Positions 13,391-58,800 of a stretch of 64,000 bases of DNA are shown here, piece after piece. Source of the DNA: Pristiophorus japonicus (taxonomy: Eukaryota); NCBI RefSeq assembly GCF_044704955.1, contig NC_091984.1, positions 148,118,001 through 148,182,000 on the forward strand, read 5' to 3'. Made by a program: the position numbers and the translations under genes. The notes below the pieces were generated by a model. The model had not been told where the DNA came from. It saw only the letters and a program-made list of their open reading frames with translations, and did not search any database. Positions within the stretch are counted from its first letter, which is position 1, and each line of letters starts with the position of its first letter.

Positions 13391-14116
13391 GAGCTGAAAA
13401 CCAAAGGCCCATTAATGGCCCATCGATGGTGTTCGCCCTCAGTCGGGTGAACAATCCAGAAATTATGGCCTGAATGAAGTAGGCCAGACCATTATTTGCT
13501 TTTTTTTAGTTTGAATTTATTTCTGCTAAGTTAGTCCTTAGTCTATTAAATAGAGGCATGGCAGGGCAGTTCTGTCCTGGATGCTTCTCGTGGCCTGGAT
13601 GACCACATGTGCAGGAAGTGTCACCAGCTACAGCAACTCGAGCTCCGCGTGTCGGAGATTGAGCGGTGGCTGGAGTCACTGCGGTGTATCTGCGAGGCTG
13701 AGAACTTCGTGGATAGCACGTTTCTAGAGGTGGCCACCCGCAGCTTAAGAGTGTGCAGGCAGAGAGGGAATGGGTGACCACCAGACAGAAGAGGAGATCC
13801 AGGCAGGTAGTGCAGGAGTCCCCTGAGTCCATCTCACTCTCCAACCAGTATTGTGTTCTGAGTACTGGTGGGGGCGATGGTGCCTCTAGGAAGTGCAGCC
13901 AGAGCCAAGTCCACGGCACCACGGGTGGCTCATCTGCACAGGGGGGAGGAAGGAGAGTGGAAGAGCAATAGTGGTAGGGGATTCGATAGTTGGGGAACAG
14001 ACAGGCATTTCTGCGGCCGCAGACATGACTCCAGGATGGTATGTTGCCTCCCTGGTGCCAGGGTCAAGGATGTCACTGAGTGGCTGCAGTACATTCTGAG
14101 GGAGGAGGGTGAACAA

Positions 14117-14821
14117 TGTGGAATTGTATTTTTATCTAAGCTGATACCATTCGGTATTTGTGTGCCCTTTGCAATATATATATAACAAAATGGAGTCCTG
14201 GTCCTTCCAGAACTTTCTGCATGAAAGCAATCAGCTTGCATAAACAGCTAAACCTGGTTTGAGATGGCTGATGGCCATCAGACAGCTAGGAGACAAGTCA
14301 TGCTGAGACAAGTACCGCCCCCCCATGGTGCTCTCCTATTGTCTACACGACAAGAGTTCCATGTCACCCCACCCTTTTCTTCTAGACTCAAACCACCAGC
14401 CATTATCTCTTGTAGAGACCTCATCCATTTGATGCAAACAGATAAACTGACTAGGAAACTGAACAATCCTGACACAATGCAAGACAGGTAATAGCTCATT
14501 ACCTCACTCTCATGGAGTAATGGCCGGCTGGCCAACGAATAACCCTGACAAAAGGAAATATCTGGAAACCATGTCAGGACAAGGATGTAGTAATTAACTC
14601 TTTATCTGTATTCACTGACTACGAGACAGAGCCAATACACAGGGAGAGGCCATAACTTGGGTTTTACTGTATAAATATCTTGTGAAACTGTACCATTTCG
14701 GAGGTGTTCACTTAGCTCTTGACTGAGTGTGACCTGCCCCTTGCTTGCAAGTAAATTAAAGAAACTTCTGCCGGAGCTGTAAGTGTCGGAGTCATTCTTT
14801 TCGGAGGTCGAGATTTCGACA
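14117..14821 (+). repeat. ERV 5' LTR (705 bp)
   Basis: Direct repeat of 20502-21209, roughly 98% identical by eye; TATAAA at 14670, ATTAAA at 14755. Confidence 0.95.
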
Positions 14822-14830
14822 GTTACTTCT

Positions 14831-14848
14831 TGGAGGTTCCACCGAGAT
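14831..14848 (+). promoter_or_regulatory. Primer binding site, tRNA-Gln
   Basis: TGGAGGTTCCACCGAGAT is the reverse complement of the vertebrate tRNA-Gln 3' end (ATCTCGGTGGAACCTCCA). Confidence 0.9.
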
Positions 14849-15759
14849 GCATACTCTCTGTCCTGTGAATAAAACGGATACAGGCATAGTGCCTCTCCAG
14901 TGAAAGGCTTCAGTGGCCAAAACAAGGTGAGCCTTTTGCTCGCAAGAGGTTTCTTCACTGTTGAATCGCATATGTAATCTGTTGTCCACAGGGGAGGTAC
15001 TGCAATCTACAAGACTCGACATTTAAAACCTAAAGATATTTTTTTATAACCACTTCTTTCTCAACTTGCAAGCAGAAGAGAACGGGTTCTGGAAAAATCT
15101 CGAAACAGCCCGGGGAAGGTTTCAGTCGGTAAGGGAGCGCTCGTCGATCGAAAAAGGTTCCTGAAGGTTCTTATTAGAAAAAAAAAGCGCTAATCAATTG
15201 AAGGTTCTTATGTGATAAGAGTTTTATTGTTTTTAATTAGGAAAAGGTTCTTATGTGATAAGAGTAGGAAAAAAAAAGAAGCGCAATCGATCAAAGGTTC
15301 TTCTGTGATAAGAGTTAGGGTATGGAACCATAAGTTTTATAAGTTTTATTAGGATAAGTTAAGGACTCGGTCTGTAGTGGCATACAACGCAGACTGAGAA
15401 TTGATTATTTGTTTAGATAGAGTGTAAGGTTATGATTTGTATACTCGCGTGAATATTGTTTGTCCTAGCTGTCCTTGTTGTACTGTCGTGTGCAATACCT
15501 TTGTGCGACATTGCCATTAGAGAAACCGGAAGAATCACTAAGGAAAATTGTGATTCGGAAAAAAAAACAAGGATTGATTGAGAAAAGAAACAGTAACTGA
15601 TTGATCAACTACGGTTGGTTTGTGCCAACATATCTCACACACCCAGACAGAGCCCGAATTAAGAGCCTTTTCAGGCCACGTAACGGCCAGGAGAAGTGGG
15701 CATAGAGAACTCGGTTGGCCGAAAGGATTGTGAGATCAGAAACTGTGGAAAATCTTAAT

Positions 15760-16050
15760 CATGCAGAATGGGTGCCAGAGCAAGTTAAAACACCACAAAA
15801 GGCACACCAGCCTATGTCATGCTCCAGAATTGTGGTCAGTCTTCAATTGACCAAAGAAAAAAAACGGTAAAGTGGACTAAGGGTGAAAACAGGCCATTTC
15901 CACCCGATGGTTCATTTAATTTAGAGAGAACAACATGTCTAGAGGAGTGTCTTATAAACAGAGATCCAGGTAGAAAAAAAAGGAAAGTAATAGAAAAGGC
16001 CTGGGTTCCGATTCTTCAAGCCCATGTAAAATTTAACAGAGGAAGTAAAT
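15760..16050 (+). pseudogene. gag: ERV gag N-terminal (matrix-like) remnant
   Basis: KWTKGENRPFPPDGSFNL resembles the W..FP..GSF motif of class I matrix; no CA/NC follows. Confidence 0.55.
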
Positions 16051-16431
16051 TAAATGCCATAAGAGAACCTGATAGTGACTTATGGATTAAAAAAAGGAGA
16101 AGCTTTATTGAATGGAGAGAGACTTTTGTGAATGTCTTGTCTTTGAATGAGAGTGGTGAATGTCTTGTCTTTGAATGAGAGCGCTTCTGTGTTTTTTTTC
16201 TTGTGTCTGGAAACCTATTTGGAAGGGTTGTGGAGCTGCCTGTTTGTTTTAGCTCCACCCACTTTTTCAAACAAAGTGAAGTTTTTTAACCCTTCATAGT
16301 GTTGTCCTGTATGTGGGAAGTTTAAGACATTTTAAGTTAGAAGCGCAGGTGTGGATTTATTCGGATGAGAAGTTACGGAGCTAGGAAATGCACAAAGGGT
16401 AGGTTTGTTGAGACATGGTCCCGGTGGTTAA

Positions 16432-16483
16432 AAGTTGTAATGCCTTGGGAAGTTGTAATGCCTTGGGAAGTTGTAATGCCTTT
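16432..16483 (+). repeat. 18-bp tandem repeat x3 inside ERV
   Basis: aagttgtaatgccttggg repeated. Confidence 0.9.
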
Positions 16484-16809
16484 TTAAAAAAAAAAGCCTT
16501 TGTGGGTCTCTCGAGGTGCAGGCTGGGGGAATACACTCTCATTGTCCTTGGTGTAAAATCTTGGTACAAAAGCTTCTAGCTCAGTAAGAGGATTTGTTTT
16601 TTTTGATAAAGAGTGGCAGTACAATAGTTGAATTGGGATTTTGAGATATTTGAGGTGATCTCCTTGATCAACATTTTGGGTGTATTGGAAAAATCTTGGG
16701 TTTGGAAGCCTTTTAATAAGATTAGAAAACAAGTACTTTACATTCTGTGATCTGTGAATCACTATAAGCATAAATGAGAAATCCGTGTAACACACTGATT
16801 CTTCCAGTT

Positions 16810-19060
16810 CAGAAGCCCACACAAATGGAGGTTTGTCCATGACCTACGAGCTGTGAATGAATCTACTATATTCTCACAATGCTTAAAGAAGGATTTGGAA
16901 TGAAGTATCCCGGAATGCTTTCCAGAGTCTTAGGCAGCCCCTCACTTCAGCACCAGCCTTGGGATTACCAGATTACACTCAGCTATTCAACTTATTTGTG
17001 CATCACAAGTCGGGTTTTGCACAATCTGTTTTGACTCAGTTACATGGGGACAGGCAGCGGCCGGTAGCGTATTTCAGTACCCAACTAGACCCAGTGACAC
17101 GCGGACTACCAAGATGTCTTCCTTCGTTGGCAGCAGCTTATTATGCTATGCAACAGGCTCAGACAATAACTCTAAATCATCAGACCATTTTGTATATCCC
17201 ACACTCTGTCGAGATTTTACTTACTAAATGTGCCACCCAACACCTAACCTCTGCAAGAACCACTAAATATGAAGTCGAACTGTTATCAAATCCGAACCTT
17301 ATCATCAAAAGATGCACTACCTTAAATCCAGCCACTCTACTCCCCACGGAAGAAGACGGCGAACCCCATTCATGTGAAATGGTAACCGAATTAGTGACTA
17401 AACCACGTATCAATCTAACAGATGTACCAATGTGTAACCCTGATTTAGTGTACTATGTTGACGGATCAGCCCTACGAAATGATAGGGGCCAACCTAGAGC
17501 GGCTTATGCAATTGTAATCCAGTTTAATGTTGTCGAAACAGTCTCTCTTCCAGACTCCTTTTCAGCCCAACAAGCCGAATTGTTTGCGTTAATTCGAGCC
17601 TGTATTCTGGCTGAAGGACAAACAGTTAATATCTACACTGACTCCAGGTATGCTTTTGGGGTATCACATGACTATGGACAAATTTGGAAGATTCGCGGGT
17701 ACCTGACTTCTTCAGGAACCCCTATCAAAAGTGGAAAATCTTCTGCAAGCCATTCAATGCCCCTTGAAACTTGCCATTATCAAATGCCAAGCACATACAG
17801 GCCAGTCGAATGAGGTGGCACTTGGGAATGCCAGAGCTGATAATGCAGCTAAGTCAGCAGCTGTGTCAAAAGGGGGGATGCAGGTGTCATTGTTCCCACT
17901 AAGGAAAAATAATTGCTCAGTCCCGCCACCCACTATTAATGACGTGCTGACCTTTCAGACACAGGCCAGTACGGAGGAGGTGGTGACCTGGACGAAGGAT
18001 CAATGTTATAAAAATCCAGAAGGAATATGGGTTCACCACGACGGCCGTGTGGTGGCCCCTAGATCCTTACTTCCATGGATAGCCCGATGTGTTCATACAT
18101 TCACACATGCAGGCAAAGGGGGATTGGCAGATTATATTTTGGCAACTTGGTATGCACCAGGTATTTCGGCAATTGCAAAACAAATCTGTGAAAATTGTGT
18201 TACCTGTCAGACAATGAATCCGGGTAAGACGGAAAAAGTAGAATCTGCCTCCCACCCAAATCCAGTCGGGCCTTTTGTACATTTACAAATGGATTTTATT
18301 GAATTACCTATGTGTATGGGATTCAAGTATGTATTAGGTATTGTAGATGTGTTCTCGAGATGGATTGAAGCCTTTCCATGTAAAAAGGCCAATGCCACTA
18401 CTGTTGCTAAATGTTTGTTAAAGGAAATCGTACCGTGCTTCGGAATCCCTGCCATGCTTTCTAGTGATAACGGGAACTGTTATAAGAGAAATGTGTAAAG
18501 CTTTGCAGGTTAATCAACGTTTTCATTGCAGTTATCATCCACAATCAGCTGGATTTGTTGAAAGATATAATGGAATGCTTAAAAATAAGCTGGCAAAATT
18601 ATGCAATGACACTGGACTGAAATGGACAGAACTGCTGCCTTTAGCTTTGATGGTAATGTGATCTGCAACCAACAGAACAAAAGGCCTGTCACCGCATGAG
18701 ATAGTTATGGGACGTCCCCAACGACTACCTTTTACAGCACCATTTACTGCAAAACAAATGGACATCCACAAAATGGAGGAAAATATGTTGAATTATTGTA
18801 TTGCACTAACCAAATGTATTTCCAGCTTTCATTCACAGGTAAAGGGAGCTCAAGTCAAGCCAGCGGAAGGAAGTGTCATAACCTGGAGCCAGGGGAATTT
18901 GTTTACATCAAGATTTTTAAAAGAAAAAGCAGTCTACAGCCAAGATTCGAAGGACCATACCAGGTCTTGCTGGCGACCAATACTGCAATCAAGGTAAAGG
19001 AAAGACCAACATGAATCCATGCATCCCATTGCAAACGGGCACCCGACCAGGAGGAAGGGA
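16810..19060 (+). pseudogene. pol: ERV pol remnant (RT fragment, connection, RNase H, integrase)
   Basis: KWRFVHDLRAVN at ~16823; SAPALGLPDY..RPVAYFS; RNase H YVDGS/SAQQAEL/IYTDSRYAF; IN HHCC, LQMDFI, SSDNG, YHPQSAG.VER, GPY. Frameshifts and stops; YxDD core missing. Confidence 0.9.
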
Positions 19061-20471
19061 AGAAGGAATCAGAGGAACAGAAAAAGGAAGACTGAATAAG
19101 GAACTGTATGGACTATGGGGACTGATGGTGCTTGGCTTGACAGGGTTTTACTTTGCATTATTGATTACACCAGGGGTACAGACCCGGCACCGAAGGGAAT
19201 TGCAAGTAAACGTATTTATGGCACTGAGTCATAGGTATGCTCAAGAAAGAAACTTGTCGAGTTGTTGGATATGTTCCCATGTACCTGTCCACTCCGAAGG
19301 GGGCATTCCCCTGAGATCGGTCCCCTTTAACGAATCAGAAATGGTAGAATAGGACAAACCTAACTAAGGGGCCAGAAACGAAGGAGCAAACAGAATGGAG
19401 GTCGGCAGGGTATAAACTTACAGCCTTCCAGGGATGGTACCAGCCCAATTATGATAATAACCATCAGGCTCCCTTCCTAAGTATTACTCCCAGAATAGAA
19501 AATCCCGAAGGTATAATATGCCTCGTGAGTAATGAAACTAAAGGACCAGAAATGGGACGCAGCAAGTGTTCCCAAATGACTAAATGGCAAGCCACAACTA
19601 ATCCCACTGAGAGAAAGATAGCAACCGTTGGCTAGACAATGGTCCATAACAAAGCCCCAGGTGAAGGGTGGGAAGGTGAGACCACTCGAGTAGGGATGGC
19701 GCAAAAGGACCAGGAGCTGACGTCCTATAATTGCACCTACTTTATTTGTGGCCATAAAGCCTACCCATGATTACCAGCCAACTGGACAGGGTCCTGTTAC
19801 TTAGGATATGTGGTACCCTTTATCAGATCAATAAAGACTCTAAGGGATGCCGATGGAAGTCATAGACTTAAACGGGATTTGACATGGCTAAACGGAATAT
19901 TCAAGGTAATGGTGCCACCTTATGGAATAGCATCAACCGAATGGCAGTTACGGTAACTGGCTAACTTAGTTGAATCAGTAGCCAACGCAACTTCCCAAGC
20001 CTTTGAAGGGGTAACTGATGAAATGGTAGCTATTCGAACAGTGGCTCTCCAAAATCGTATGGCCTTAGATTATCTCCTAGCCAAGGAGGGAGGGACATGC
20101 GCATTAATAGGTGAAGAATGCTGTACGTATAGCCCAGATAAATCAGAAGAAATCGGCAGTCTAGCTGAATATATCAGGAAAAAGGTAATAGAGTATAAAC
20201 AGATAGTTGGCCAGGATGGTATCACCTTGTGGGGTGGGCATCGGGATGGTTGGGATCCCTAGGGAAATCTGTGGTACAGAGTTTGATCATATTCCTACTG
20301 ATAGTCTTCGCCCTGTATCAATTATTTGTCTTGGTTAAGTGTTGCTGTGCCAGGGTGGGAAAAACCATATTACCTACCGAGACCACGGCTAGAGTTATGG
20401 TAGCAACAACTACTGAAGGCTCTTGTGTGGAAATGGAAATGGAGAGACTGTACAAGATCAGAATGGATTGA
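19060..20471 (+). pseudogene. env: ERV env (gamma-type), disrupted
   Basis: Hydrophobic signal, CWIC in SU, furin RLKR at 19864-19875, immunosuppressive domain LQNRMALDYLLAKEGGTCALIGEECC (CX6CC), TM helix SLIIFLLIVFALY. Confidence 0.9.
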
Positions 20472-20501
20472 GTTGTCCTTGTGAAGGACAAAATGGGGGA
20501 A

Positions 20502-21209
20502 TGTGGAAATGTATTTTTATCTAAGCTGATACCATATGGTATTTGTGTGTCCTTTGCAATATATATAACAAAATGGAGTCCTGGTCCTTCCAGAACTTTC
20601 TGCATGAAAGCAGTCAGCTTGCATAAGCAGCTAAACCTGGTTTGAGATGGCTGATGGCCATCAGACAGCTAGGAGACAAGTCATGCTGAGACAAGTACCC
20701 CCCCCCACCCCGCCCATGGTGCTCTATTGTCTACACGACAAGAGTTCCATGTCACCCCACCCTTTTCTTCCAGACTCAAACCACCAGCCATTATCTCTTG
20801 TAGAGACCACATCCATTTGATGCAAACAGATAAACTGACTAGGAAACTGAACAATCCTGACACAATGCAAGACAGGTAATAGCTCATTACCTCACTCTCA
20901 TGGAGTAATGGCCGGCTGGCCAACGAATAACCCTGACAAAAGGAAATATCTGGAAACCATGTCAGGACAAGGATGTAGTAATTAACTCTTTATCTGTATT
21001 CACTGACTACGAGACAGAGCCAATACACAGGGAGAGGCCATAACTTGGGTTTTACTGTATAAATATCTTGTGAAACTGTACCATTTCGGAGGTGTTCATT
21101 TAGCCCTTGACTGAGTGTGACCTGCCCCTTGCTAGCAAGTAAATTAAAGAAACTTCTGCCGGAGCTGTAAGTGTCGGAGTCATTCTTTTCGGAGGTCGAG
21201 ATTTCGACA
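20502..21209 (+). repeat. ERV 3' LTR (708 bp), preceded by PPT
   Basis: PPT gaaggacaaaatgggggaa at 20483-20501, then TGTGG...TTCGACA. Confidence 0.95.
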
Positions 21210-29247: not shown

Positions 29248-29601
29248 TACTGAAAATCATATTGGACTGTTGTATAAACATCTGCAGTGCAGGATTGCCG
29301 CACATTCAGCACTGAAATGGTTAACAGTAAGAGTTCGTAAAGACTGAGTGTCCCGTTAAGACGCTGTTCACTGGCAGGAAGCTCGAACTGTAGATGGGTG
29401 GATACAGGGGAAACAGGCTCAGCAGTGAGAAAGCTCAGATCACACACAGATCGGGAGAACTTTATCAGGGAACATTGCGGCACACTTATATCAACATACT
29501 TCAGCAAGGCTTCATGTTGGGTGTCGGTGTAGAAGCTTCTAGATTGCATTTAAAAGCTTGCTGCCCAGCACCGGGGTGAGGTCAAGGGTGAGGCTACAAT
29601 T

Positions 29602-31187
29602 TGTAAGGGGTGATTTGCAAAGGGTCAGCTTTCCCTTCTGACCTTATATGAGTGGTCCCGAATCGCTCCCACACCCTTGGTTCTAGACACTGGAATTATG
29701 AAGGGACTGTGACAGACTTGGACAGACAATCGGTTTCAAGGTAGGAAGCAGGTATGGCTTTATTGTGTTTAAAAAGAAGTAAAAGGCACACCTTTAATAA
29801 CACACACACAGATCAATACACACTGAAGGGTACAACACATTGAATAAAATGTCAAATTACAGCCTGTGGGGAAAAGAATACCGCTTAAACTCTAAATGGG
29901 GTAAAGAGGAGAATGCAGATACATTTACACAAGTTATCCCAGCCTCCCCCCTCCCAATTCCCCTAACTAACTAAGTTATAGCTCTGAGGGTTCAGGGGCC
30001 ATGCTCACCAATCCCTTTAGACAGTTGCCGGTGAATCGTGGTTTCGGGGTTTGCTGCACTTGGCCTCCTAGGTGAGCTGTACCCCGGACGGAGGAGAGGA
30101 CTTCGGACTGCGTAGTCTTCAGTTGGGGTGCGTCCGTTGATGCGGTAATTTGCGTTTCGGATGTATGGGATAAGTAGCCACTTTCTTTGGTTTTAGTTAG
30201 TCCTTTTAGGTAATTTCTCACCCGTTGGCTGTTCAGAAGTAGATTGTAGAGTGGAGATAAATGTTGATTCTTCGGTTTTTGCCGAGTTGGTTTTGGTTGG
30301 TCGTTTTGCTGGTTGTGGTGGCCCGGGTTTGTCAATTTGGTTGCTGACAACCTTCCATTTCATGGGCCTCGTGCTCGGTCGGTCCTTGACGATTTCTTGT
30401 AGGTTGCTTCACGACTCCATTTCTTCACTCCGGCTGCTTGTGTCTGTCTGTGTTCATTTCGAGTCTGTGTCCTGTTCGAGTCTGTGTCCTGTTCGAGTCT
30501 GTGTCCTGTTCGAGTCTGTGTTCATTTCGAGTCTGTGTTCCTTTCGAGTCTGTGTTCTGCTAGTCCTGTGTTCTGCTACTTCTGTGTTCTGCTAGCTTTC
30601 CTTGTAAAACTGGGGGATAGATATATCCCAAAAAAAGGCTCCGTTATCTCCCATCAAATCTCTTGGGCTCTGTTTAAACTGTTCTGTCCATTGATTTTCA
30701 AATATCTCCTTTGTCAGCAGTAACTCGATTAGGGTGTGAGAATGTGCTATCACTGGTTTTGCATTGTTTTAGGATTGTCCAGTTTTTCTGACCATGATTT
30801 CCATTGTGCTTGATTGGGTAATTCGATTATCTCTTAGAGGGTGAATAGCCTGGGGTCCTTAATACATGAATTTGCTTCAGACGTTGGCCCCACCTCCTGT
30901 ATTTGGTAACTCTTTTTCGCAGCCAAAATATTGTAGAATCTTAAAATCGATATGCTCCTTCCCATAGATGTTTAGGGTATCTCAAGCTTCTGTAATTTAG
31001 GTCCATTTTGAATTCCCTTTCCTACGAGTCCAAACACTGGGGGGGGGTCTCCATGAATGCATCCCCTTTTAACCCCCGCAGGCTTCGTCTGCCCCTTTAA
31101 ACTCATTTTAAAAGCCCAGAAAGGGATTCTTCTCCTCTGTAGGGGAAAGGTACCTGGAATCTTTGCGAGATATTGGTAAATTCTACA
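29602..31187 (-). repeat. 3' LTR (1586 bp)
   Basis: Direct repeat of 37705-39238; preceded by PPT CAGGGGGAA (31196-31188); AATAAA at 29764-29759. Confidence 0.95.
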
Positions 31188-31746
31188 TTCCCCCTGTGAT
31201 ACCATATCACTTATGGTATCATCTTCGAGGTGAGCAAAGTTCCTGACTCCCAAGAGATAACCTTCTCCGTAAATTAGCTAAACTAATACCCAAAATGCAT
31301 TACACTTATGTAACATCACCATAGATGCACACTTTTCCCTTTACAGGTACAAACTTTTTACATTTATACCCTCCCAGCTTGGAGGGGGTTCAATCACTAC
31401 AATTGTATTTCAGCACAGTTACATTTCATTTCAGTTACATTATATTCACCAGCATATAGGCAACGTACAACCACATTACAGAAGGGAAAAAAACATAGAT
31501 TAAAATTAAACAACATCAATTGGTCTCCTGAGGTTTGTCCATTACCCGGTAATGTCTGGATCCTGCCCTTGAGAACTGCTCTCAGGCTGGCTGACACACA
31601 AGACAAACTCAAAATAATCACCTCAACATTACTGCAACATTAACCTCAATTCTAAACGAAACCTTAAAATGTAAAATGGTGCAGTCAGCTGCCTTAAACT
31701 AAAATTAGAGCTATGTACAACCTCCACCCGTCTCCGGGTGGCCTGG

Positions 31747-34700
31747 TTAGTCCCTGTCAGGCCCATGCCTTGTGCGGCCTGATAGCCGCCTGGGTGCTAG
31801 GGTTTCCCCGCAGCCGGTGAGCTGGAGACCCTTGTCTCTGGGACAGCTCATTGCTACTGCTCCTGTGAGACCCTCACCGCTGGAGGCGGCTGGCTGGTGG
31901 TCCCTACTCTGAGCGGCCTCTGTACTTCTGACCTTCGGCCTTTCCTGTCGGGCTGCCCTTCTCCTAGGGTAGAATCGCTGAGGCTCAGATGCCAGTGACC
32001 ACAGTATCTTTGGCCGTGGTGTACGGAGGGTCCTTCTCAGGGCTTGGGTTACTGGGGGTGCGTCCGAATCCCAAACGATGGGTGGGATAGCCCCTCCAGT
32101 ACTGCAATTCACCGCCACTATAGGCACGGTTTCTGAGCCTGCCACATTCCCTGTGGCCCTCCACCGTCGGGGGCGGCCAACGGAGGGTCCCTGTCCTGAG
32201 GACGGTTCACCCCTCCCGGCTGCCCTCTGTGCTTGGCTGACCCTGGGTTGTACAGCTTGCACTGGTTGATGTGGAACCACTTAGTACGGTGGGGCAGCTT
32301 TATGGCACAGACCATCGGGCTTGCCTTGTCCACAATGCTGTATGGCCCCATATATAATGCTTCAAAAACACTGACCTGAGCATAGTTCCTCACCATGACC
32401 TGGTCCCCTATCTCCCATTCGTGGTGTTTGCTAGGTTCTAGCAGCAATTGGTTCCCCTGATGCTGTCTGCCCATGTTACTAGCAGCCTGCCAGTGAATCT
32501 GTTTGAGGTGTTCAAACAGGTTCCTGACAAACCGGTCCCGGTTCACCTCTCTGAGCTGACCTTCTGTGAGCACCGGGGTTCGGATATGGGTGGGGTTCCG
32601 CATGATCCGGCCAGTCATGAGCTCGTATGGGGAATATCCGATGCTCTTTGACTGGCTGGGCTCGGATCCCCATTAGGACCAACGGTAAGACCTCCACCCA
32701 CTTTTGGGGTGAGTCTCTCGTTTCCTTCCGCAGCTTTTCTTTAATGGTGCAGTTTAAATGCTCCACAATACCGGATGACTGTGGATTGTGGGCAACGTGC
32801 CATTTCCCCTCAATGCCGAGCACCTTAAGGGTTGCCTGCATTACCTGCCCGGTGAAATGGCTCCCCTGGTCCGACTCCACATACTGTGGGAGTCCCCACT
32901 GGGAGAACACTTCCCTCACTAGAATCTTAGCTGTCCCTCGTGCGGTGGCTGTTCGGCAGGGGAAGGCTTCAACCCATTTTGAGAACACGTCCATCAGGAC
33001 TCGGAAGTATTAGTAGCCTCCCTGGGCGGTGAGTAGGGGCCCGATGTAGTCAATTTGGATTGACTGCCATGGTCCCTCTACCCTCCTGACGTGTCCTAGG
33101 GACACCTTCCTTTTCTGGGGGTCAGGGTTGTTCGTAGCACACACCAGGCAGTTCGCACAGAACTCGCGGACATCCTCCTTGAGTCCCGGCCACCATCCTG
33201 CCTGTTCCACCCGTTGCCAGGTGGTCTCAGGCCCGGGGTGTCCCGCTCCTGGACCCTCATGGGCCAGTTTTAGGAATTCCCTCTGGTGCTGCTGTGGCAC
33301 GACCCATTGTCCCTCTTTAAACAGCATGCCTTCCTTAACGGTAATGGCTGCTGTGCCGTACGGACCTTCTACTCTCTCTCCTCTAGCTAGCACATTCAGG
33401 ACAGCTTTCAGGACTGGGTCCTGTGCCTGAACTGTTTTTAAGTCCGGGGCCAAAGCTATACCTGTACTCACCGCTGCCCTGTTCTTATTCTTGACCGCTG
33501 CTATGCGGCCGGTGTCATAGGGGTCCCAGAACTTTCCCGTGCGGGCACCTTCTTTGGCCAGTTTGTCAGCCTGTTGGTTTCCCTCTGCTAGGGGTTCAGT
33601 TTTTGAATGGGCCTTCACCTTATGTATGTAGACCTTTCTTTCTTCCCCCAAGATTTTCTCCAGCAGGGGCTTGATTGCCAGGGGTCTCCCATCAGCGGAC
33701 ATGTATCCGCGACGGGACCAGAGAGCCAGGTACTCCGTACATGAATTGCAGGTGAACATACTGTCCGAGCAAATCGTGTACGGAGTAGGGAATTCCTCGG
33801 GGTGGATCACCACGTACATTACGGCGGACAGTTCAGCGTGCTGGGCCCTCATGGTGCTGGGCAGCTTGATTGCCAGGGCAATATCTGCCCTTGGGTCATA
33901 GACTCCGCACCCAGTGAGTCATTCGCCAACAGATACCGTGCTGGACCCGTCCACGTAGATGTCCCGGCCTGTAGGGTGTAACCCAGCCTGAAGGCCAATG
34001 CTCACCTCCCATACCCCTTCTATGGAGCACCTGTGGGCTTTCCCAGGATAGATTAGGTTGGCTGCGAGCCTTGATCACGGGGGCCTTCTACTCTGAGGTC
34101 CATCTGGGAGAGGAGCAGGGTCCAGCGAGCAATGCGGGCACTGCTCACCGTCCTGTCCTTAATCCTCCCATCTAGGAGCATCTGAGTCGGTGTGTGGTGG
34201 GTTAGGAGTGTTAGAGGAGACCCTTCCGTGAAGATGAAAGATCTTTTCACTGCCCAATGTGTGGCTCGGAGATGTCTCTCACAGTTGGAGTACCACTTCT
34301 CCACATCTGTTGGGATACTGGAGGAGTAAACCACTAAGGCCAGTAAGGCCGTGCTGCTCTTGAAGCAGCACTGAGCTCAAATTGTCCCCGCTGGCTGCCA
34401 CCTCCAGGAAAAACTCCTTTCCTACATCTATCGTACCTGCAAGTCCTTCTTGAGCTGATTAAATGCTGCCTCGCAACCCTCATCCCAGTCCCACTCTACA
34501 CCCTTGTGTAGGAGCCTGAGCAGAGGGGCTGCAGTGGCTGCATAATCCTCAATGAAGTCTCTGTAGTACCCGGTGAGTCCTAGAAAGGATCTTACCCCTG
34601 TCACTGTGTTGGGGGCTGGTAACTCCTGTACTGCCTCCCTTCTAGCCTTGTCTATGGCCCTTTCCCCAGCACGCACAGTCAGCCCCAGGAATTTGACTTC

Positions 34701-35870
34701 CTTCTGGCCGACCTGTGCCTTCTTGGGGTTTACTTTAAACCCTTCTTCTTTTAGCAGCTCCAGCAGCTCAGCCAGCAGTGGGCCATGCTCCTCCCCCTGA
34801 TCGGTGAACAGGAGCAGGTCATCCACATACTGCACCAACTGCTGGGGTCTGCTGAAGCCCTTTAAACAGTTCGCCATGCATTGGTGAAAAATGCTGGGGC
34901 TGTTGTGGAAGCCTTGGGGAAGACAGTTCCACGTGTATTGTTGGCCCTTAAAGGTTTTAAAGGAATGGACCAGAACCCATTTGAAATGTCCAGCACCGTG
35001 AAAGTGGTCGCGGATGCTGGAATACTCCCTATGAGATCCGCTACGGCTGCTACAGTGGGTGCACAGGCAGTGATATTCTTATTTAGTATTCAATAGTCCA
35101 CGGTGGCCCTCCATGAGTTGTTCGGTTTCTTAACCGGCCACAGTGGAGAGTTCACACGGGTGGCTATCGGTCTTAACACCCCTTGCTCTACCAGTGATCC
35201 CAGCGCCGTTGTCAGGTCTGCCTCTGCCTCCCTGGGGAAGTTATATTGCTTTTGTGGTCGGGTCATGGGGTCCCCTACTATACTAACTTCCAGCCCCTGT
35301 TACCCTACCACAGTCATGTTTGTGGGTGGCGAATGCTGCAAGGTGTGCCCGTACATATGCCTGGTACTCCACTGGGGTGTTACTGACCAGTAATTCCAAG
35401 TCATAACCGTCCTTTGGCTTCACGGTACACAATGTTCCCTTGGCCCCTTTTTCTGGGATCACCGCCACCTCACCTTCCCTGTCAGTCACTATGGCTCCCC
35501 ATAGACAGTGGTTCCTGAGATCCACTAGGATCTGGTGGGCAATGATAAAATCAGCCCCCAGGATCCCTTTTCCCTTCTGCTCCCATTCCATCAGGACACA
35601 CTTCCATTTGGTTTTGAGTGTCCCTAACTGAATGGTGAGCAGGATGGAAAACGAACCAGTTTGCTCATTGCCTGTGAACCCCACTAGACTGTACGGGACC
35701 CCGTTCGATAGAGGTGAGGTAGCTGGGTTATCTGCATATACAAGGGTGCTGGAAGCACCAGTATCTAGCAGGTAGGTCCCTTTCACTTTCTCCACCTCCA
35801 TCGTAACGCAAGGTCTCTTCCAGGAATCATACTCTCGGGAACACAGGTACACAGGCTGAGCTGGCTCTAG
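31747..35870 (-). pseudogene. pol: pro-pol polyprotein (protease, RT, tether, RNase H, integrase), frameshifted
   Basis: LLDTGAS; FTVLDISNGFWSIPL; QYTWNCLPQGFHNSP; QYVDDLL; tether with FLEVAAS..VSSARIARWTLLL; RNase H YVDGS/AQHAEL/ICSDS/EGNQQAD; IN H..H, C..C, IQIDYIG, ESDQG, PQSSGIVE, GPY. Confidence 0.9.
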
Positions 35871-37703
35871 TCATGCATCTGGGTGGGTTGGAGCAGAGGG
35901 TTTTACCGTACCGGCTACTGCACCAGTTGCGATAGCTACTGCTCCCTGTCCGTTTATGAGTGTCTGTAGGGCGGCTACGAGTGTCTCATATGAGTCGGGT
36001 GTTCCTGCCCCGGCCTTACGGGCTGGGGCTGAAGTGGCCTTTCCCTTAGTCCCTTTCCATGGGTTCCTACAGTTCTTCCTCCAGTGCCCACTTTTCCCAC
36101 ACCCAACACACTCGCCTCCTTTATGGGGAGGGTTCCCACTTTCCTGATGCCACTCTCTCTTGCCTTAGCTGGGTTTAATCTCATGGACCCTCCCTTTAGA
36201 GGAGGGCTCCTCTGTCCCTCTACCGTTCCGGTAAGCCAGGGTCAACTGTCTGACCACTGTCTCCTCGGTGGTTCTGGGATCTCTTGGATCGAACCAGACC
36301 TCGACTTTTGCCTTTACTCCAGGTAAGCTGTTTGCCACCAGGCTGCGGAGCCAGTGAGCCAGCTCGTTAGGGTTCAGGTGGGCCCGGTCAAGAACCCCAC
36401 TACAGGCCCTTTCGTAGACCGGCCACAACCTGTCGGCGAAAGCCTGTGGAGTCTCCCCATAGAGCTGCACTGTTTTCTCCACTCGGGAGAAAGGACTCCC
36501 GTCGTTCATACCCATGGCCTCTGGAACCTCCTCCTTAACTGTAGCGTACGTGTTTCGCCCCTTTCTGCTGTCTGCAGAGAGGGAATGGCACAGCTTGGTG
36601 TCTAGTGAGAAGAGCAACAGCTTAGCCTGCTCCGAATCATCGCACCCGTTAATATCCCCTGTGTGTTCCACTTCCAGGAAGTGTACCGAGGGATCCCCCT
36701 GTTGGGTGAGCTTACTTAGGTGGCCTATCATAGCCCTCAGTTTTTGGGTGTCGTGGGGGACTACGAAGTTGCATTCTAGGGGTCCTGCTGCCCCATTGGC
36801 ATCAGGCGGGCCAAACTTCTGCTGCCGGACCGGGTCCATTGGCCCTGGTTTCGGCCCTTCTTGTATTGGCTTGCCCTCTTCCCCCTGCTGCCAAGCCGAA
36901 TTAAAACTCGGGGCTGCCGGTGTTAGTAGTTCGTAATCCTTGCCTGCCCCGCACTCTGGCTGACACCCCTGCTGCCCGGGGCCATTCCTGGGAGCTACAG
37001 GTGGTGACTGAGGGGTTTCTCCTTGCCCAACCAGGTGTTCCTGGGCTAAACCCGGGTTTATCAGGCACACCATGCCTTTAGCCCAGGATAGAGCAAGGTT
37101 CAAGCTTTGGATCTGCTGCTGGCAGCGGCCGTGGTCTCCTGGCTCAAATTCCCTGGTACTGGCTACCTTATAGGCTACCTGAATGTGTCTCACCCTCTCC
37201 CCATACTCTTTAACTTGCTTGGCGAGGCAGGAATTCTCTTCCCGCAACGCCCGTTTGCTATTCTTGGCTTCAATAATCTGACACCGTAAAAGGTCCAGTT
37301 GGGTTTTGTGCCTTTCTTTAGTGAGCTCTCTACTTTCCTTTAACTGTCCCACCTCTGTCCACAACCTTTCCCCGACTGTGGCCCTTGCGCTGGACCTCTC
37401 TTCTGCCTGTCTCAATACTCCCTTTAATTTCTCATTCTCCTCATCTCGAAGCCGGGTCTGTTGCTGAAGGCAAATTAGCCAAATGGCCTTCTCTATCGTC
37501 CTTTTATGGTCCTTGTTATCGGTCCATTGAGCTGCAGCATCTTCTGGATGCTCAGCATACAATAGATCGATTACCCACTCCTTAGCCACATTTACCCTCT
37601 TAAACACATATGAGGAAATCTCCTCTTCCATTTTGCTTTGTTTCCTGAAACCAGTCTCTCTCTTATCACGTCCCTTGTACCAGTGTCCTATCTGGGTTGC
37701 CAT
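35871..37703 (-). pseudogene. gag: gag (coiled-coil N-terminus, capsid, CCHC knuckle, PSAP), single premature TAA
   Basis: The 512-aa ORF stops at TAA 36167-36165, but the same frame continues GKREW...CVGCGKSGHWRKNC...KPSAPTHPDA to TGA at 35873-35871. Confidence 0.88.
37685..37702 (-). promoter_or_regulatory. Primer binding site, tRNA-Arg
   Basis: TGGCAACCCAGATAGGAC, 2 nt after the LTR; 16/18 match to the complement of vertebrate tRNA-Arg(CCG) 3' end (TGGCGACCCAGATGGGAC). Confidence 0.75.
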
Positions 37704-37704
37704 G

Positions 37705-39238
37705 TGTAAGGGGTGGTTTGCAGAGGGTCAGCTTTCCCTTCTGACCTTATATGAGTGGTTCTGAATCGCTCCTACACCCTTGGTTCTAGACACTGGAATT
37801 ATGAAGGGACTGTGACAGACTTGGACAGACAATCGGTTTCAAGGTAGGAAGCAGGTATGGCTTTATTGTGTTTAAAAAGAAGTAAAAGGCACACCTTTAA
37901 TAACACACACACAGATCAATACACACTGAAGGGTACAACACATTGAATAAAATGTCAAATTACAGCCTGTGGGGAAAAGAATACAGCTTAAACTCTAAAT
38001 GTGGTAAAGAGGAGAATGCAGATACATTTACACAAGTTATCCCAGCCTCCCCCCTCCCAATTCCCCTAACTAACTAAGTTATAGCTCTGAGGGTTCAGGG
38101 GCTATGCTCACCAATCCCTTTAGACAGTTGTCGGTGAATCACGGTTTCGGGGTTTGCTGCACTTGGCCTTCTAGGCGAGCCATACCCCGGACGGAGGAGA
38201 GGACTTCGGACTGCGTAGTCTTCAGTTGGGGTGCGTCCGTTGATGCGGTAATTTGCGTTTCGGATGTATGGGATAAGTACCCACTTTCTTTGGTTTTAGT
38301 TAGTCCCTTTTGGTAATTTCTCACCCGTTGGCTGTTCAGAAGTAGATTGTAGAGTGGAGATAAATGTTGATTCTTCGGTTTTTGCTGAGTTGGTTTTGGT
38401 TGGTCGTTTCGCTGGTTGTGGTAGCCCGGGTTTGTCAATTTGGTTGCTGACAACCTTCCATTTCATGGGCCTCGTGCTCGGTCGGTCCTTGATGATTTCT
38501 TGTAGGTTGCTTCACGACTCCATTTCTTCACTCCGGCTGCTTGTGTCTGTCTGTGTTCTGTTCGTGTCTGTGTTCCTTTCGAGTCTATGTCCTGTTCGAG
38601 TCTGTGTTCTGCTAGTCCTGTATTCTGCTAGCTTTCCTTGTAAAACTGGGGTATAGATATATCCCAAAAAAAGGCTCCATTATCTCCCATCAAATCTCTT
38701 GGGCTCTGTTTAAGCTGTTCTGTCCATTGATTTTCAAATGTCTCCTTTGTCAGCAGTAACTTGATTAGGGTGTGAGAATGTGCTCTCATTGGTTTTGCAT
38801 TGTTTTAGGATTGTCCAGTTTTTCTGACCATGATTTCCATTTTACTTGATTGGGTAATTCGATTATCTCTTAGGGGGTGAATAGTTCCCCCAGACAGTCT
38901 GGGATCCTTATTACACGAATTTGCTTCAGACGTTGGCTCCACCTCCTGTATTTGGTAACTCTTTTTCGCAGCCAAAATGTTGTAGAATCTTAAAATCGAT
39001 ATGCTCCTTCCCATAGATGTTTAGGGGATCTCAAGCTTCTGTAATTTTGGTGCATTTTGAATTCCCTTTCCTATGAGTCCAAACACTGCGGGGGGGGGTC
39101 TCCATGAATGAATCCCCTTTTATCCCCCGCAGGCTTCGTCTGCCCCTTTAAACTCATTTTAAAAGCCCAGAACGGGATTCTTCTCCTCTGTAGGGGAAAG
39201 GTATCTGGAATCTTTGCGAGATATTGGTAAATTCTACA
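37705..39238 (-). repeat. 5' LTR (1534 bp)
   Basis: Direct repeat of 29602-31187. Confidence 0.95.
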
Positions 39239-39439
39239 AATTAGCCTCAGTGTACCGGGGCCAGGCAGGGTCACTACTCCCAAATGATCCCGAGACCTCC
39301 TGGAAGGTCAGAGTGCATGGACAATGGGCGAGGGTCAGGATCAGGGCCCTCCCACTTCAATGAAAGAAAGCCTTGAATTTATATAGCACCTTTCACAAAC
39401 TCAGGACATCCCAAAGTGCTTTACAACCAATTGCACACA

Positions 39440-46612: not shown

Positions 46613-49495
46613 TCTATCTTTCCTTTCTTTATTGCTTCTTAGTCATTCTTTGCTGTCGTTTAAAATTTTCCCAATTTTCTAGTTTCCCACTAACCTTGGC
46701 CACCTTATACTCATTGGTTTTTAATTTGATACTCTCCTTTATTTCCTTGGTTATCCACGCCTGGTTATCCCTTCTCTTACCGCCCTTCAAAAGATAGACA
46801 AGAAGGGAAAGGAGGTGGGCTAGCTCTGTTAATAAAGGATGATATCAGAGCAGTTGTGAGAGATGATATTGGATCTAATAAACAAAATGTTGAATCATTG
46901 TGGATGGAGATTAGAGATAGTCAGGGGAAAAAGTCACTGGTGGGCGTAATTTATAGGCCCCCAAATAATAACTTCACAGTGGGGCGGACAATAATCAAGG
47001 GAATAATGGAGGCATGTGAAAAAGGAACGGCAGTAATCATGGGGGATTTTAACCTACATACCGATTGGTCAAATCAAATCGCACAGGGTAGCCTTGAAGA
47101 GGAATTCATAGAATGCATACGGGATTGTTTCTTAGAACAGTATGTTACAGAACCTACAAGGGAGCAAGCTATCTTAGATCTGGTCCTGTGTAATGAGACA
47201 GGAATAATAAACGATCTCCTTGTAAAAGATCCTCTCGGAATGAGTGATCACAGTATGGTTGAATTTATAATACAGATTGAGGGTGAGGGAGTCGTGTCTC
47301 AAACGAGCATACTATGCTTAAACAAAGGGGACTACAGTGGGATGAGGGCAGAGTTGGCTAAAGTAGACTGGCAACACAGACTAAACGGTGGCACACTTGA
47401 GGAACAGTGGAGGACTTTTAAGGAGCTCTTTCATAGTGCTCAACAAAAATATATTCCAGTGAAAAAGATGGTCGGTAAGAGAAAGGATAACCAGCCATGG
47501 ATAACCAAGGAAATAAAGGAGAGTATCAAATTAAAAACAATGCATATAAGGTGGCCAAGGTTAGTGGGAAACAAGAAGATTGGGAAAATTTTAAACGACA
47601 GCAAAGAATGACTAAGAAAGCAATAAGGAAAGGAAAGATCGATTATCAAAGTAAACTTGCGCAAAACATAAAAACAGATAGTAAAAGCTTTTACCGATAT
47701 ATAAAACGGAAAAGAGTGACTAATGTAAATGTTGGTCCCTTAGAAGATGAGATGGGGGATTTAATAATGGGAAATGTGGAAATGGCTGAGACCTTAAACA
47801 ATTATTTTGCTTCGGTCTTCAAAGTGGAAGACACAAAAACCATGCCAAAAATTGCTGGTCATGGGAATGTGGGAAGTGAGGACTTTGAGACAATCACTAT
47901 CACTAGGTGGGTAGTGCTGGACAGGCTAATGGGACTCAAGGTAGACAAGTCCCCTGGTCCTCATGAAATGCATCCCAGGGTATTAAAATAGATGGCGGAT
48001 GTTATAGCAGATGCATTCGTTATAATCTACCAAAATTCTCTGAACTCTGTTTAAAAAAGGGGGCAGAAAAAAGGCAGTTAACTAAAGGCCGGATAGTTTA
48101 ACATCTGTAGTGGGGAAAATGCTTGAAGCGATCATTAAGGAAGAAATGGCCGGACATCTAGATAGGAATAGTGCAATCAAGCAGACGCAACATGGATTCA
48201 TGAAGGGGAAATCATGTTTAACTAATTTACCGGAATTCTTTGAGGATATAATGAGCAAGGTGGATAGAGGTGTACCGATGGATGTAGAGTATTTGGATTT
48301 CCAAAAGGCATTCGACAAGGTGCCACATAAAAGGTTACTGCAGAAAATAAAGGTACGCGGAGTCAGAGGAAATGTATTAGCATGGATAGAGAATTGGCTA
48401 ACTAACAGAAAGCAGAGAGTTGGGATAAATGGGTCCTTTTCAGGTTGGCAATCGGTGATTAGTGGTGTGCCACAGGGATTGGTGCTGGGGCCACAACTGT
48501 TTACAATATACATAGATGACCTGGAAGAGGGGACAGAGTGTAGTGTAACAAAATTTGCAGATGACACAAAGATTAGTGGGAAAGCGGGTTGTGTAGAGGA
48601 CACAGAGAGGCTGCAAAGAGATTTAGATAGGTTAAGCGAATGGGCTAAGGTTTGGCAGATGGAATACAATGTCGGAAAATGTGAGGTCATCCACCTTGGA
48701 AAAAAAAACAGTAAAAGTGAATATTATTTGAATGAGGAGAAATTACAACATGCTGCGTTGCAGAGGGACCTGGGGGTCCTTGTGAATGAATCACAAAATG
48801 TTAGTTTGCAGGTGCAGCAGGTAATCAGGAAGGCAAATGGAATGTTGGCCTTCATTGCGAGAGGGATGGAGTACAAAAGCAAGGAGGTCCTGCTGCAACT
48901 GTATAGGGTATTGGTGAGGCCGCACCTGGAGTACTGCGTGCAGTTTTGGTCACCATACTTAAGGAAGTATATACTAGCTTTGGAGGGGGTACAGAGACGA
49001 TTCACTCGGCTGATTCCGCAGATGAGGGGGTTACCTTATGATGATAGATTGAGTAGACTGGGTCTTTACTCGTTGGAGTTCAGAAGGATGAGGGGTGATC
49101 TTATAGAAACATTTAAAATAATGAAAGGGATAGACAAGATAGAGGCAGAGAGGTTGTTTCCACTGGTTGGGGAGACTAGAACTAGGGGGCACAGCATCAA
49201 AATACGGGGGAGCCAATTTAAAACCGAGTTGAGAAGGAATTTCTTCTCCCAGAGGGTTGTGAATCTGTGGAATTCTCTGCCCAAGGAAGCAGTTCAGGCT
49301 AGCTCATTGAATGTATTCAAGTCACAGATAGATAGATTTTTAACAATAAGGGAATTAAGGATTATGGGGAGCGGGCGGGTAAGTGGAGCTGAGTCCACGG
49401 CCAGGTCAGCCATGATCTTGTTGAATGGCGGAGCAGGCTCGAGGGGCGAGATGGCCTACTCCTGTTCCTAATTCTTATATTCTTATGTTCTTATG
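46613..49495 (+). mobile_element. Young CR1 LINE (ORF2 EN-RT; 453-aa open RT/C-terminus) nested in an older CR1
   Basis: ORFs 46856-47611, 47497-47991, 48110-49471; same subfamily as 5951-9259; host CR1 sequence resumes at 49496. Confidence 0.95.
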
Positions 49496-55848: not shown

Positions 55849-58800
55849 TAAAAAGCAAGGGACCCAGTACTGAGCCCTGCGGAACCACACTGGATACAGG
55901 CTTCCAGTAAGAAAAACACCCATCAACCATTACCCTTTGCTAACTGCCTCTGAACCAATTTTGGATCCAACTTGTCACTTTGCCCTGGATCCCATGGGCT
56001 ATTACTTTTGTGACCAGTCTGTAATGTGGGACCTTAACAAAAGCCTTGTTAAAATCCATATCCACTGCATCATACGCACTGCCCTCATCGACTCTCCTTG
56101 TTATCTCCTCAAAAAATTCAATCAAGTTATTCAGACACGACCTTCCCTTAACAAATCCATGCTGACTGTCCTTGATTAATCCGTGTTTTGTTAAATGAAG
56201 ATTCCTCCTATCCCGCCCCCGAGGTTAGGCTGACTGACCTGTAGTGACTCGATCTATCCCTTGCTCCCTTTTTAAACAAAGGTACCACGTTTGCAGTCCT
56301 CCAGTCCTCCGGTACCTGGGATTGCAATGTCAGCATCGCCCCTCTCGGCCAGTTCGGTCAGTAGTGGTGCTACCGAGCCACTCTTGGTGATGGACAGTGA
56401 AGTCCCCCACCCAGAGTACATTCTGTGTCCTCGCTCCTCTGAGTGCTTCTTCCAAGTGGTGTTCAACATGGAGGAGTACTGATTCATCAGCTGAGGGAGG
56501 GCGGGAGGTGGTAATCAGCAGGAGGTTTCATTGCCCGTGTTTGACCTGATGCCATGAGACTTCATGGGGTCCGAAGTCAATGTTGAGGACTCCCAGGGCC
56601 ACTCCCTCCCGACTGTTTGCACTGGGAGGGACATTGGCTGAAAGGTATGATTCTGTGAGTAGGACTATGTCAGGCTGGTGCTTGACTAGTCTGTGGGACA
56701 GCTCTCCCACTTTTGACATAAGTCCCCAGATGTTGGTGAGGAGGATGTTGCAGGGTCAGCACTGAGCCTGGGTTCGCTGTCCTAGCCAGTCCGAGCTGCT
56801 GTTATTCTGCCTGATTGGACGGTTATTATTAAAGACTCAGACCACAGCAGAAATCCCCCGTGCAAAAAATAACTGATGAGATTGTCAGATCGGAAGAATA
56901 AAACTTCACCCATAGAGGAAATGAAAGAGGAAGGTTGTCACAGCTGTACGTTTGTTAATGACATGGGAGAAAACTGTGAACCGTACTCACAGCCTAGAAT
57001 CTTACAGCACAGAAGGAGGCCATTCGGCCATTCGTGCCTGTGCTGGCTCTTTGAAAGATTTACCCAATTAGTCCCACTCCTCCCCTGTTAAAGAACGTAA
57101 GAAATAGGACCAGGAGTCGGCCACACGGTCCTTTGAGCCTGCTCCGCCATTTAATACGACCATGGCTGATCCGATCATGGATTCAGGACCACTTCCCACC
57201 CCGCTCCCCATAACCCCTTATTCCCTTGTCGGTTAAGAAACTGCCTATCTCTGCATTATATTTATTCAATGACCCAGCTTCCACAGCTCTCTGAGGCAGC
57301 GAATTCCACAGATTTACAACCCACTGAGAGAAGAAATTCCTCCTCATCTGTTTTAAATGGGGCACCCCTTATTCTTAGATTGTGCCCTCTAGTTCTATTC
57401 TCCCCCATCAGTGGAAACATCCTCTCTGCATCCAACGTGTCAAGCCCCCTCATAACCTTATATGTTTCGATAAGATCACCTCTCATTCCTCTGAATTCCA
57501 ATGAGTAGAGACCCAACCTACTTAACCTTTCCTCAGAAATCAACATCCTCATCTCCTGAATCAACCTAATGAACCTTCTCTGACCTGCCTCCAAAGCAAG
57601 TATATCCTTTCTTAAACATGGAATCCAAAATTAGTGTGTCCACATCAATACCCTGTATAGCTGTAGCAAGACTTCCCTGCTTTTATACTCCGTCCCCTTT
57701 GCAATAAAGGCCAAGATTCCATTGGCCTTTCTGATCACTTACTGTATCTGCATACTAACTTTTTGTGTTTCATGCACAAGTACCCGCTGCACCACAGCAC
57801 TTTGCAATCTTTCTCCATTTAAATAATAACTTGCTCTTTGAATTTTTCTGCCAAAGTGCATGATCTCACACTTTCCAACATGACACTCCATCTGCCAAAT
57901 CTTTGCCCACTCACTTAGCCTGCCTACGTCCTTTTGCAGGTTTTCTGTATCCTTGTCACACATTGCTTTTCCTCCCATCGTTGTATCATCAGGAAACTTG
58001 ACTACATTATATTCGGTTACATCATCCAAGTCGTCAATATATATTGTAAATAGTTGGGGTCCCAGCACTGATCCCTGCGGCACCCCACTAGTTACTGATT
58101 CCCAACCCGAGAATGAACCATTTTTGCAGACTCTCTGTTTTCTGTTAGTTAGCCAATCGTCTATACATGCTAATATATTACCCTCAACCCCGTGACCTTT
58201 TATCTTATGCAGTAACCTCTTATGTGGCATCTTGTCAAATGCCTTCTGGAGGTCCAAATACACCACATCCACTGGTTCCCCTTTATCTACCCTGCTCGTT
58301 ACATCCTCAAAGAATTCTGCAACTTTATCAAACATGACTTCCCCTTCATAAATCCATGCTTACTGTGCCTGACTAAATTATGCTTATCCAAATGTCCTGC
58401 TACTGCTTCTTTAATAATGGACTCCGACATTTTCCCAACCACAGATGTTAGGCGAACTGATCGAAAGTTTTCTGCTTTTTGTCTACCTCCTTTTTTAAAT
58501 AGGGGCGTTACATTTGCAGTTTTACAATCTGCTGGGACCTCCCAAGAATACAGGGAATTTTGGTAAATTACAACCAATGCATCCATTGTCCCTGCCACGA
58601 CTTTTCATAACACCTTGGTATGCAAGCCATCAGGTCCAGGGGATTTATCCGCCTTTAGTCCCATTATCTTACTGAGTACCACCTCCTTAGTGATTGTGAT
58701 TGTGTTAAGTTCCTCGCCCCCGTAACCCAGCAAATTGTTCCTTTTCAAGTATATATCCAATTCCCTCTTGCAGACCTGAGCCCACAGCACGAGACTGCCC

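Follow-up and report, generated by a model that had tools for sequence, protein, structure and literature searches.

A decayed, env-less endogenous retrovirus of Pristiophorus japonicus with an in-frame UGA-CUAG stop between gag and pol

Organization and decay of the element

The analysed window, a 64,000-nucleotide stretch of Pristiophorus japonicus DNA (NC_091984.1, positions 148,118,001 to 148,182,000), carries on its minus strand a decayed full-length endogenous retrovirus (ERV) of 9.6 kb, which is bounded by two LTRs and lacks env. In window coordinates it comprises the following features.

39239-39242 and 29598-29601: left and right copies of a 4-bp target-site duplication, AATT
37705-39238, minus strand: 5' LTR of about 1.53 kb, with TG...CA ends, 17-bp tandem repeats and AATAAA at 37867
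37685-37702, minus strand: primer-binding site (PBS), beginning with TGG 2 nt past the LTR
35874-37703, minus strand: gag, with an apparent N-terminal coiled-coil region (by eye), a retrotransposon/Ty3-type capsid and one CCHC knuckle
35889-35900, minus strand: PSAP motif 9 residues from the Gag C-terminus, a candidate late domain
35867-35873, minus strand: gag stop in an in-frame UGA-CUAG (type II readthrough) context
35663-35861, minus strand: tentatively predicted extended stem-loop, beginning 9 nt past the stop, with arms 35861-35845 and 35681-35663
32256-35870, minus strand: pol, with protease (DTG), reverse transcriptase (RT, YVDD), tether, RNase H and integrase (H2C2, rve, SH3-like), and many stops and frame changes
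31188-32255, minus strand: stretch of about 1.07 kb between pol and the 3' LTR, with a polypurine tract at its end
29602-31187, minus strand: 3' LTR

The LTRs with their TG...CA ends, the target-site duplication, the PBS and the polypurine tract are hallmarks of Retroviridae, and the domain matches give pol the order protease, RT, tether, RNase H and integrase. Pfam families were matched by the knuckle, aspartyl protease, RT, RNase H and integrase, the knuckle and protease below the curated cut-offs. The main Gag piece matched no Pfam family; in the Atlas it groups with retrotransposon-gag capsid clusters with a score of 0.94. The PBS, which we take to be that of an arginine tRNA, shares 13 of 18 letters (by eye) with the PBS of the snakehead-type locus L001. 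The LTRs are unusually long (1.5-1.6 kb), and the tandem repeats inside them (38532-38630 and 30429-30578) differ in copy number.

The absence of env from this copy, stated in the initial annotation, is borne out by the 1.07 kb ahead of the 3' LTR, in which the longest ORF has 170 codons, no ORF is env-like and none of three env probes finds a match. As env loss is common in ERVs, this absence lowers only the case for an infectious form and leaves retroviral membership unaffected. The initial annotation had overlooked a second in-frame stop, the TAA at 36167-36165, which lies upstream of the zinc knuckle and breaks gag here, as well as the frame changes in pol and at least 11 further stops (at 35285, at 35243 and nine in the aligned pol pieces). 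With these extra stops and frame changes this copy is dead and unable to make Gag-Pol itself. The two LTRs differ by 54 mismatches in 1522 aligned columns, which at the rate of PMC4422223, over which its author advises caution, would very roughly correspond to 80 million years.

The window contains other elements. A second, unrelated ERV occupies 14115-21209 on the plus strand, with a pair of 0.7-kb LTRs that are 96.5% identical, tether, RNase H and integrase at 16875-18832 and an env-like piece at 19209-20181; it has no gag or RT match and is thus probably internally deleted. Fragments of LINE-type endonuclease and RT are found at 46730-49471 (plus strand) and 57739-58359 (minus strand).

The gag-pol junction and its inheritance

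The minus-strand read initially reported for the end of gag, AAA CCC TCT GCT CCA ACC CAC CCA GAT GCA TGA CTA GAG CCA, was recovered from the window, and translation of 37727-35200 on this strand confirms that gag, the TGA (35873-35871) and the protease ORF (35870-35286) have one frame in common. The retropepsin profile match begins at residue 17 after the stop and the catalytic DTG lies 36 codons past it; the sole in-frame ATG ahead of the active site is residue 24, at 35801, i.e. 23 codons past the stop. The in-frame UGA followed by CUA corresponds to the type II signal (UGA-CUA/CGG) as defined in PMC13517186. UGA-CUAG promotes readthrough in vertebrate cells, where the motif is conserved through vertebrates and UGA-CUA alone yields 1.5% readthrough in human cells, according to the available text of PMC4132726. 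Counted without regard to position, TGACTAG is no more frequent in the window than chance predicts (6 observed vs 8.2 expected). CTAG has a frequency of about 0.3-0.4% and follows only 1 of the 98 TGA triplets on the coding strand of the element, that one being the gag stop. It is the position of TGACTAG, rather than the frequency of the word, that is unlikely by chance.

Sibling copies were followed over 35560-36420 in contigs from four runs (X1, X2, X3 and X7; three studies, two organisms), of which X1 is possibly the source of the window itself. At 36167 X1 disagrees with the window over 18409.5 of its 18646.7 depth, and X2, X3 and X7 disagree over their entire depth, which amounts to about 99-100% in each of the four runs. 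The stop at 36167-36165 is thus private, and its profile was used as the control for what such a copy-specific stop looks like in the contigs. The gag TGA behaves differently: among the 40 of 127 variant rows listed none falls within 35860-35924, which includes PSAP and TGA-CTAG and where the X1 bin depth is about 165,000. In three long contigs spanning the stop, 6 of 7, 14 of 15 and 14 of 16 differences are placed elsewhere, one or two in each being without known position, and the stop triplet is found at its usual place in two diverged loose ends from X1. A sense codon such as CGA in sibling copies, which according to the initial annotation would have made the TGA a copy-specific nonsense mutation, was not encountered among the rows listed.

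More distant Gags were compared as proteins; in all three full-length homologues (P0001, P0003 and P0004, 39-46% identity) the C-terminus falls no more than 5 columns from this stop. They are the full-length ones of 24 Gag hits, most of the others being fragments. Taken together, the contigs and homologues indicate that TGA-CTAG is inherited and not a copy-specific nonsense change. As to the suggested conservation across family copies, TGA-CTAG and PSAP show no variant in close siblings among the rows listed; at the greater distance of the full-length homologues PSAP is found in only one of three.

In this copy the PBS and the first ATG in frame with gag overlap (37703-37685, minus strand), which leaves almost no leader. 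P0001 and P0004 likewise start with MAT, and a second common methionine lies about 24 codons further on. P0001 is the skate protein LOC144598870, an intact Gag of 588 amino acids with 39% identity that is annotated as a host gene with isoforms; it may represent either a recent provirus or a gag gene co-opted by the host. No other Gag homologue is named, and this one points to a cartilaginous fish as host of the element.

Affiliation of the element and recurrence of its stop context

The closest named RT is that of L001 (42.5% identity over 228 residues), a locus that agrees with published SnRV in RT and in its UAG-GGC junction, and among the reference sets of PMC9040795, as far as accessible, the DISNGF motif of the element RT occurs in SnRV only. 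A quick tree of 37 rows joins the window with the Pol homologue P0002 (100) inside a 25-row retroviral clade that includes L001 (SH-aLRT 100), apart from 12 Gypsy-like rows. Within this clade the neighbours of the window are coelacanth and frog Pols, in a loose grouping (80, drawn open), and the window falls outside the starred group containing L001. The deep branches have SH-aLRT values of 80-86; P0054-P0071, L003, L005, L007 and L011-L015 were left out. The element thus appears to be class III or SnRV-like (clade Huo, PMC6001957), a tentative assignment without placement in a named lineage. From the sequence it does not appear to be a gamma, foamy or loki element, three groups of which the tree contained no reference. 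ERV RTs of cartilaginous fish belong mostly to clade III (PMC11089739). No relative of P0002 was found in viral_contigs, and an alignment query returned one locus and 14 in metagenomes, none of this family.

Several known systems resemble the element in part. SnRV (clade Huo; CmiERV lineage I in elephant shark, PMC4422223) likewise has an in-frame gag-stop-pol arrangement, a CCHC knuckle, a similar PBS and DISNGF, but its junction reads UAG-GGC, env is present and Gag contains no P[TS]AP; the element, having neither UAG-GGC nor env, was rejected as snakehead retrovirus proper. XtERV-S, a class III frog ERV, shares the in-frame gag-TGA-pol order, for which suppression has been proposed, as well as tether plus RNase H and a PSAP near the Gag C-terminus (496-499 of 530). 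It differs in its TGA-CAG context, YIDD, a dUTPase after the integrase, the lack of a CCHC knuckle, a 5-bp target-site duplication, a serine PBS and env (PMC8278194), whereas the element has YVDD, one CCHC, a 4-bp duplication, no env and no dUTPase motif in a simple pattern scan; on these grounds the XtERV-S/ERV-L lineage was rejected. Lokiretroviruses have a dual RNase H as the element does, but also a mononegavirus-like env, and sharks are not among the hosts listed in the available text of PMC7947760. Membership in this group was rejected on RT motifs (CPFG and IYVDD-type vs LPQGF and QYVDD in the element), compared by eye with Loki-Str, Loki-Bsp and Odin rows.

The layout is therefore not new, since an in-frame gag-TGA-pol with a C-terminal PSAP has already been published for XtERV-S (PMC8278194). 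The initial annotation had set the UGA of the element against the UAG of gamma- and epsilonretroviruses and the spliced pol of foamy viruses. This contrast was drawn too sharply, as UGA gag-pol junctions are known from XtERV-S and from SSSV, ZFERV and the frog ERV of Rhinella marina; the latter three are distantly epsilon-related and, unlike the element, have the contexts UGAAGA, UGACGA and UGAAGU (PMC13517186).

What is new is the more modest point that UGA-CUAG recurs in a bullfrog class III ERV, in four lokiretrovirus consensus sequences and in a teleost-type ERV. An African bullfrog relative of XtERV-S reads TGA CTA GAG, the same nine letters as the element (PMC8278194 file 5, on the assumption that its sequence is the bullfrog one in Fig. 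S5). In the lokiretrovirus supplement (PMC7947760), 4 of the 17 TGACTAG places listed, read by hand, terminate gag and are followed in the same frame by a protease D[ST]G motif; these four consensus sequences (places 1, 13, 14 and 17) read TGA-CTAG-G. The words 'stop' and 'readthrough' are absent from the main text of that paper as available. The teleost-type ERV, L009, has an in-frame TGA-CTAG junction reading UGA-CUA-GAA.

TGACTAG was found at no place in the supplements of the Odin paper (10 files with some rows truncated, apparently mostly protein alignments and so uninformative) or in the elephant-shark CmiERV file, in which line breaks may conceal matches. UGACUA is absent among the UGA-type retroviruses in the accessible part of the 2026 review PMC13517186. 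A search that left out most subscription journals and Repbase returned no published description of UGA-CUAG in a retroviral gag-pol junction, which does not prove its absence.

A single stop characterizes every locus among L001-L015 that shows a one-frame gag-pol junction: besides the UGA-CUA-GAA of L009 there are UAG-GGC (L001), UAG-CAA-UUA (L002, L003), UAG-CGC (L004, L005) and UAG-AGG (L008, L010, L015). Apart from L009, 6 further retrovirus-like junction types or copies in this set have a single in-frame stop. In L006 the frames overlap; the junction could not be read from L007 and L011-L014. The UAG-CAA-UUA of L002 (2915-2923) and L003 (2467-2475) is the type I (TMV) readthrough motif in a fish-type retroviral gag-pol junction; the accessible text of PMC13517186 states that this motif is not found in animal viruses.

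Probable readthrough and alternative explanations

We infer opal readthrough, and its rate, from the observed layout, inheritance of the stop and recurrence of its context. In the active ancestor a single unspliced RNA would have carried gag and pol in one frame. The majority of ribosomes would terminate at the UGA and produce Gag, while in a few percent of passes they would read the UGA as an amino acid, most likely by means of a near-cognate tRNA, and go on to make Gag-Pol, which the protease would cleave to release the enzymes. The 3' CUAG context would aid readthrough and the downstream stem possibly as well. The C-terminal PSAP may have acted as a TSG101-binding late domain, which is the weakest step of this explanation. 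Because the TGA is inherited, homologous Gags end there and in-frame UGA-CUAG recurs in unrelated elements, the opal readthrough proposed initially is supported, and we consider it probable that Pol of this family was made in this way. The explanation as a whole, an env-less class III/SnRV-like family whose active ancestor produced Gag-Pol by UGA readthrough, appears probable.

Alternatively, the TGA could be an ordinary terminator and Pol be made separately from Gag, either from a spliced mRNA as in foamy viruses or by reinitiation at the ATG at 35801. This ATG is in frame and precedes the DTG, the gene caller puts the start of the homologue P0002 at about the same position, and foamy viruses, to which class III ERVs are related, start pol separately (PMC8278194). 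A start at 35801 would, however, drop the first residues of the retropepsin profile match, and separate expression needs neither the kept frame nor the leaky context, yet both recur across lineages, which makes it an improbable route to Pol. A further alternative is that gag and pol once formed a single ORF and that the TGA is a nonsense mutation in it, restricted to this copy or fixed in a sub-lineage of non-autonomous elements. In favour of this, decay of the copy is heavy and at least 12 other stops interrupt it, and variant rows beyond the 40 of 127 listed might contain minority forms with a sense codon. Against such an origin, the TGA is unlike the control private stop at 36167 in the sibling contigs and three diverged Gags share this end. 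A search for longer protease-bearing forms, which is weak evidence, returned one protein from 833 candidates, and this is Pol only and not a Gag-Pol fusion. We therefore regard a nonsense mutation as highly improbable and favour readthrough.

A stimulatory stem for readthrough is so far a lead only. Folding of the approximately 150 nt 3' of the stop, as the initial annotation suggested, gives no stem signal (z +0.74 at 153 nt). A 214-nt fold predicts the long-range stem with z -3.47 and 0 of 200 shuffles, at a length picked after five trials. When gag-pol is scanned, 6 of 35 windows reach z <= -3, two of which overlap the stem region and four are among the other 33. Of the four pairs of the long-range helix that can be seen in the diverged contig X7 record 28, two are broken (by eye), and one outer stem pair falls where this copy differs from nearly all siblings, so that the predicted alphavirus-like stem is not backed by conservation. 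The fold of a decayed copy is no fair test in either direction. For L009, folds 3' of its stop give no structure signal, all 5 windows having z > -1. In alphaviruses the nsP3-nsP4 junction combines UGA-CUA/CGG with an extended 3' stem (PMC3159437), to which UGA-CUAG and the predicted stem of the element would correspond, with a spacer of 8-9 nt in VEEV (PMC3159437) vs a predicted 9 nt here. While readthrough and stem are measured and conserved in alphaviruses and in vertebrate UGA-CUAG genes (PMC4132726), those of the element are predicted from sequence, the stem without covariation.

Textbook retroviral readthrough relies on UAG and a pseudoknot. It is conceivable, although in our judgement rather unlikely, that type II, alphavirus-like readthrough at UGA-CUAG is an overlooked and deeply distributed mode of Gag-Pol production, shared by shark and frog class III, teleost and loki elements and here accompanied by an extended 3' stem. 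Such a mode may even be ancestral for retroviruses and lokiretroviruses and have given rise to UAG-pseudoknot readthrough, frameshifting and pol splicing. If the recurrence holds, basal retroviruses use a leaky context that is common to alphaviruses and vertebrate host genes, and the junction context provides a simple, countable character for the evolution of Gag-Pol expression. Taken by itself, the locus is unremarkable: both the type of ERV of which it is a dead copy and its type of recoding are already known.

P(T/S)AP motifs bind TSG101. In this Gag, PSAP as a late domain is plausible, with the chances about even, and the opposite reading, in which PSAP arose by chance in a Gag tail that is rich in proline and of low complexity and has no ESCRT role, is equally balanced and compatible with readthrough. 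The motif is retained at the same place in P0003 at 46% identity, is expected in about 1% of shuffled pieces (the motif having been chosen post hoc) and has counterparts in P0005 and P0021, where PPxY or P[TS]AP occur elsewhere in Gag; the C-terminal PSAP of XtERV-S is annotated as a late domain (PMC8278194). Pointing to chance, it is missing from the C-termini of P0001 and P0004, the Gag of L001 has neither P[TS]AP nor PPxY, and env is missing from this copy. A PDB search with P0003 matched the zinc knuckle only. The budding ancestor that had been deduced from PSAP is expected from phylogeny anyway, so that the weak inference from a motif present in one of three homologues is not needed; the place of the element among retroviruses and its env-bearing relatives are more direct grounds for an enveloped ancestry.
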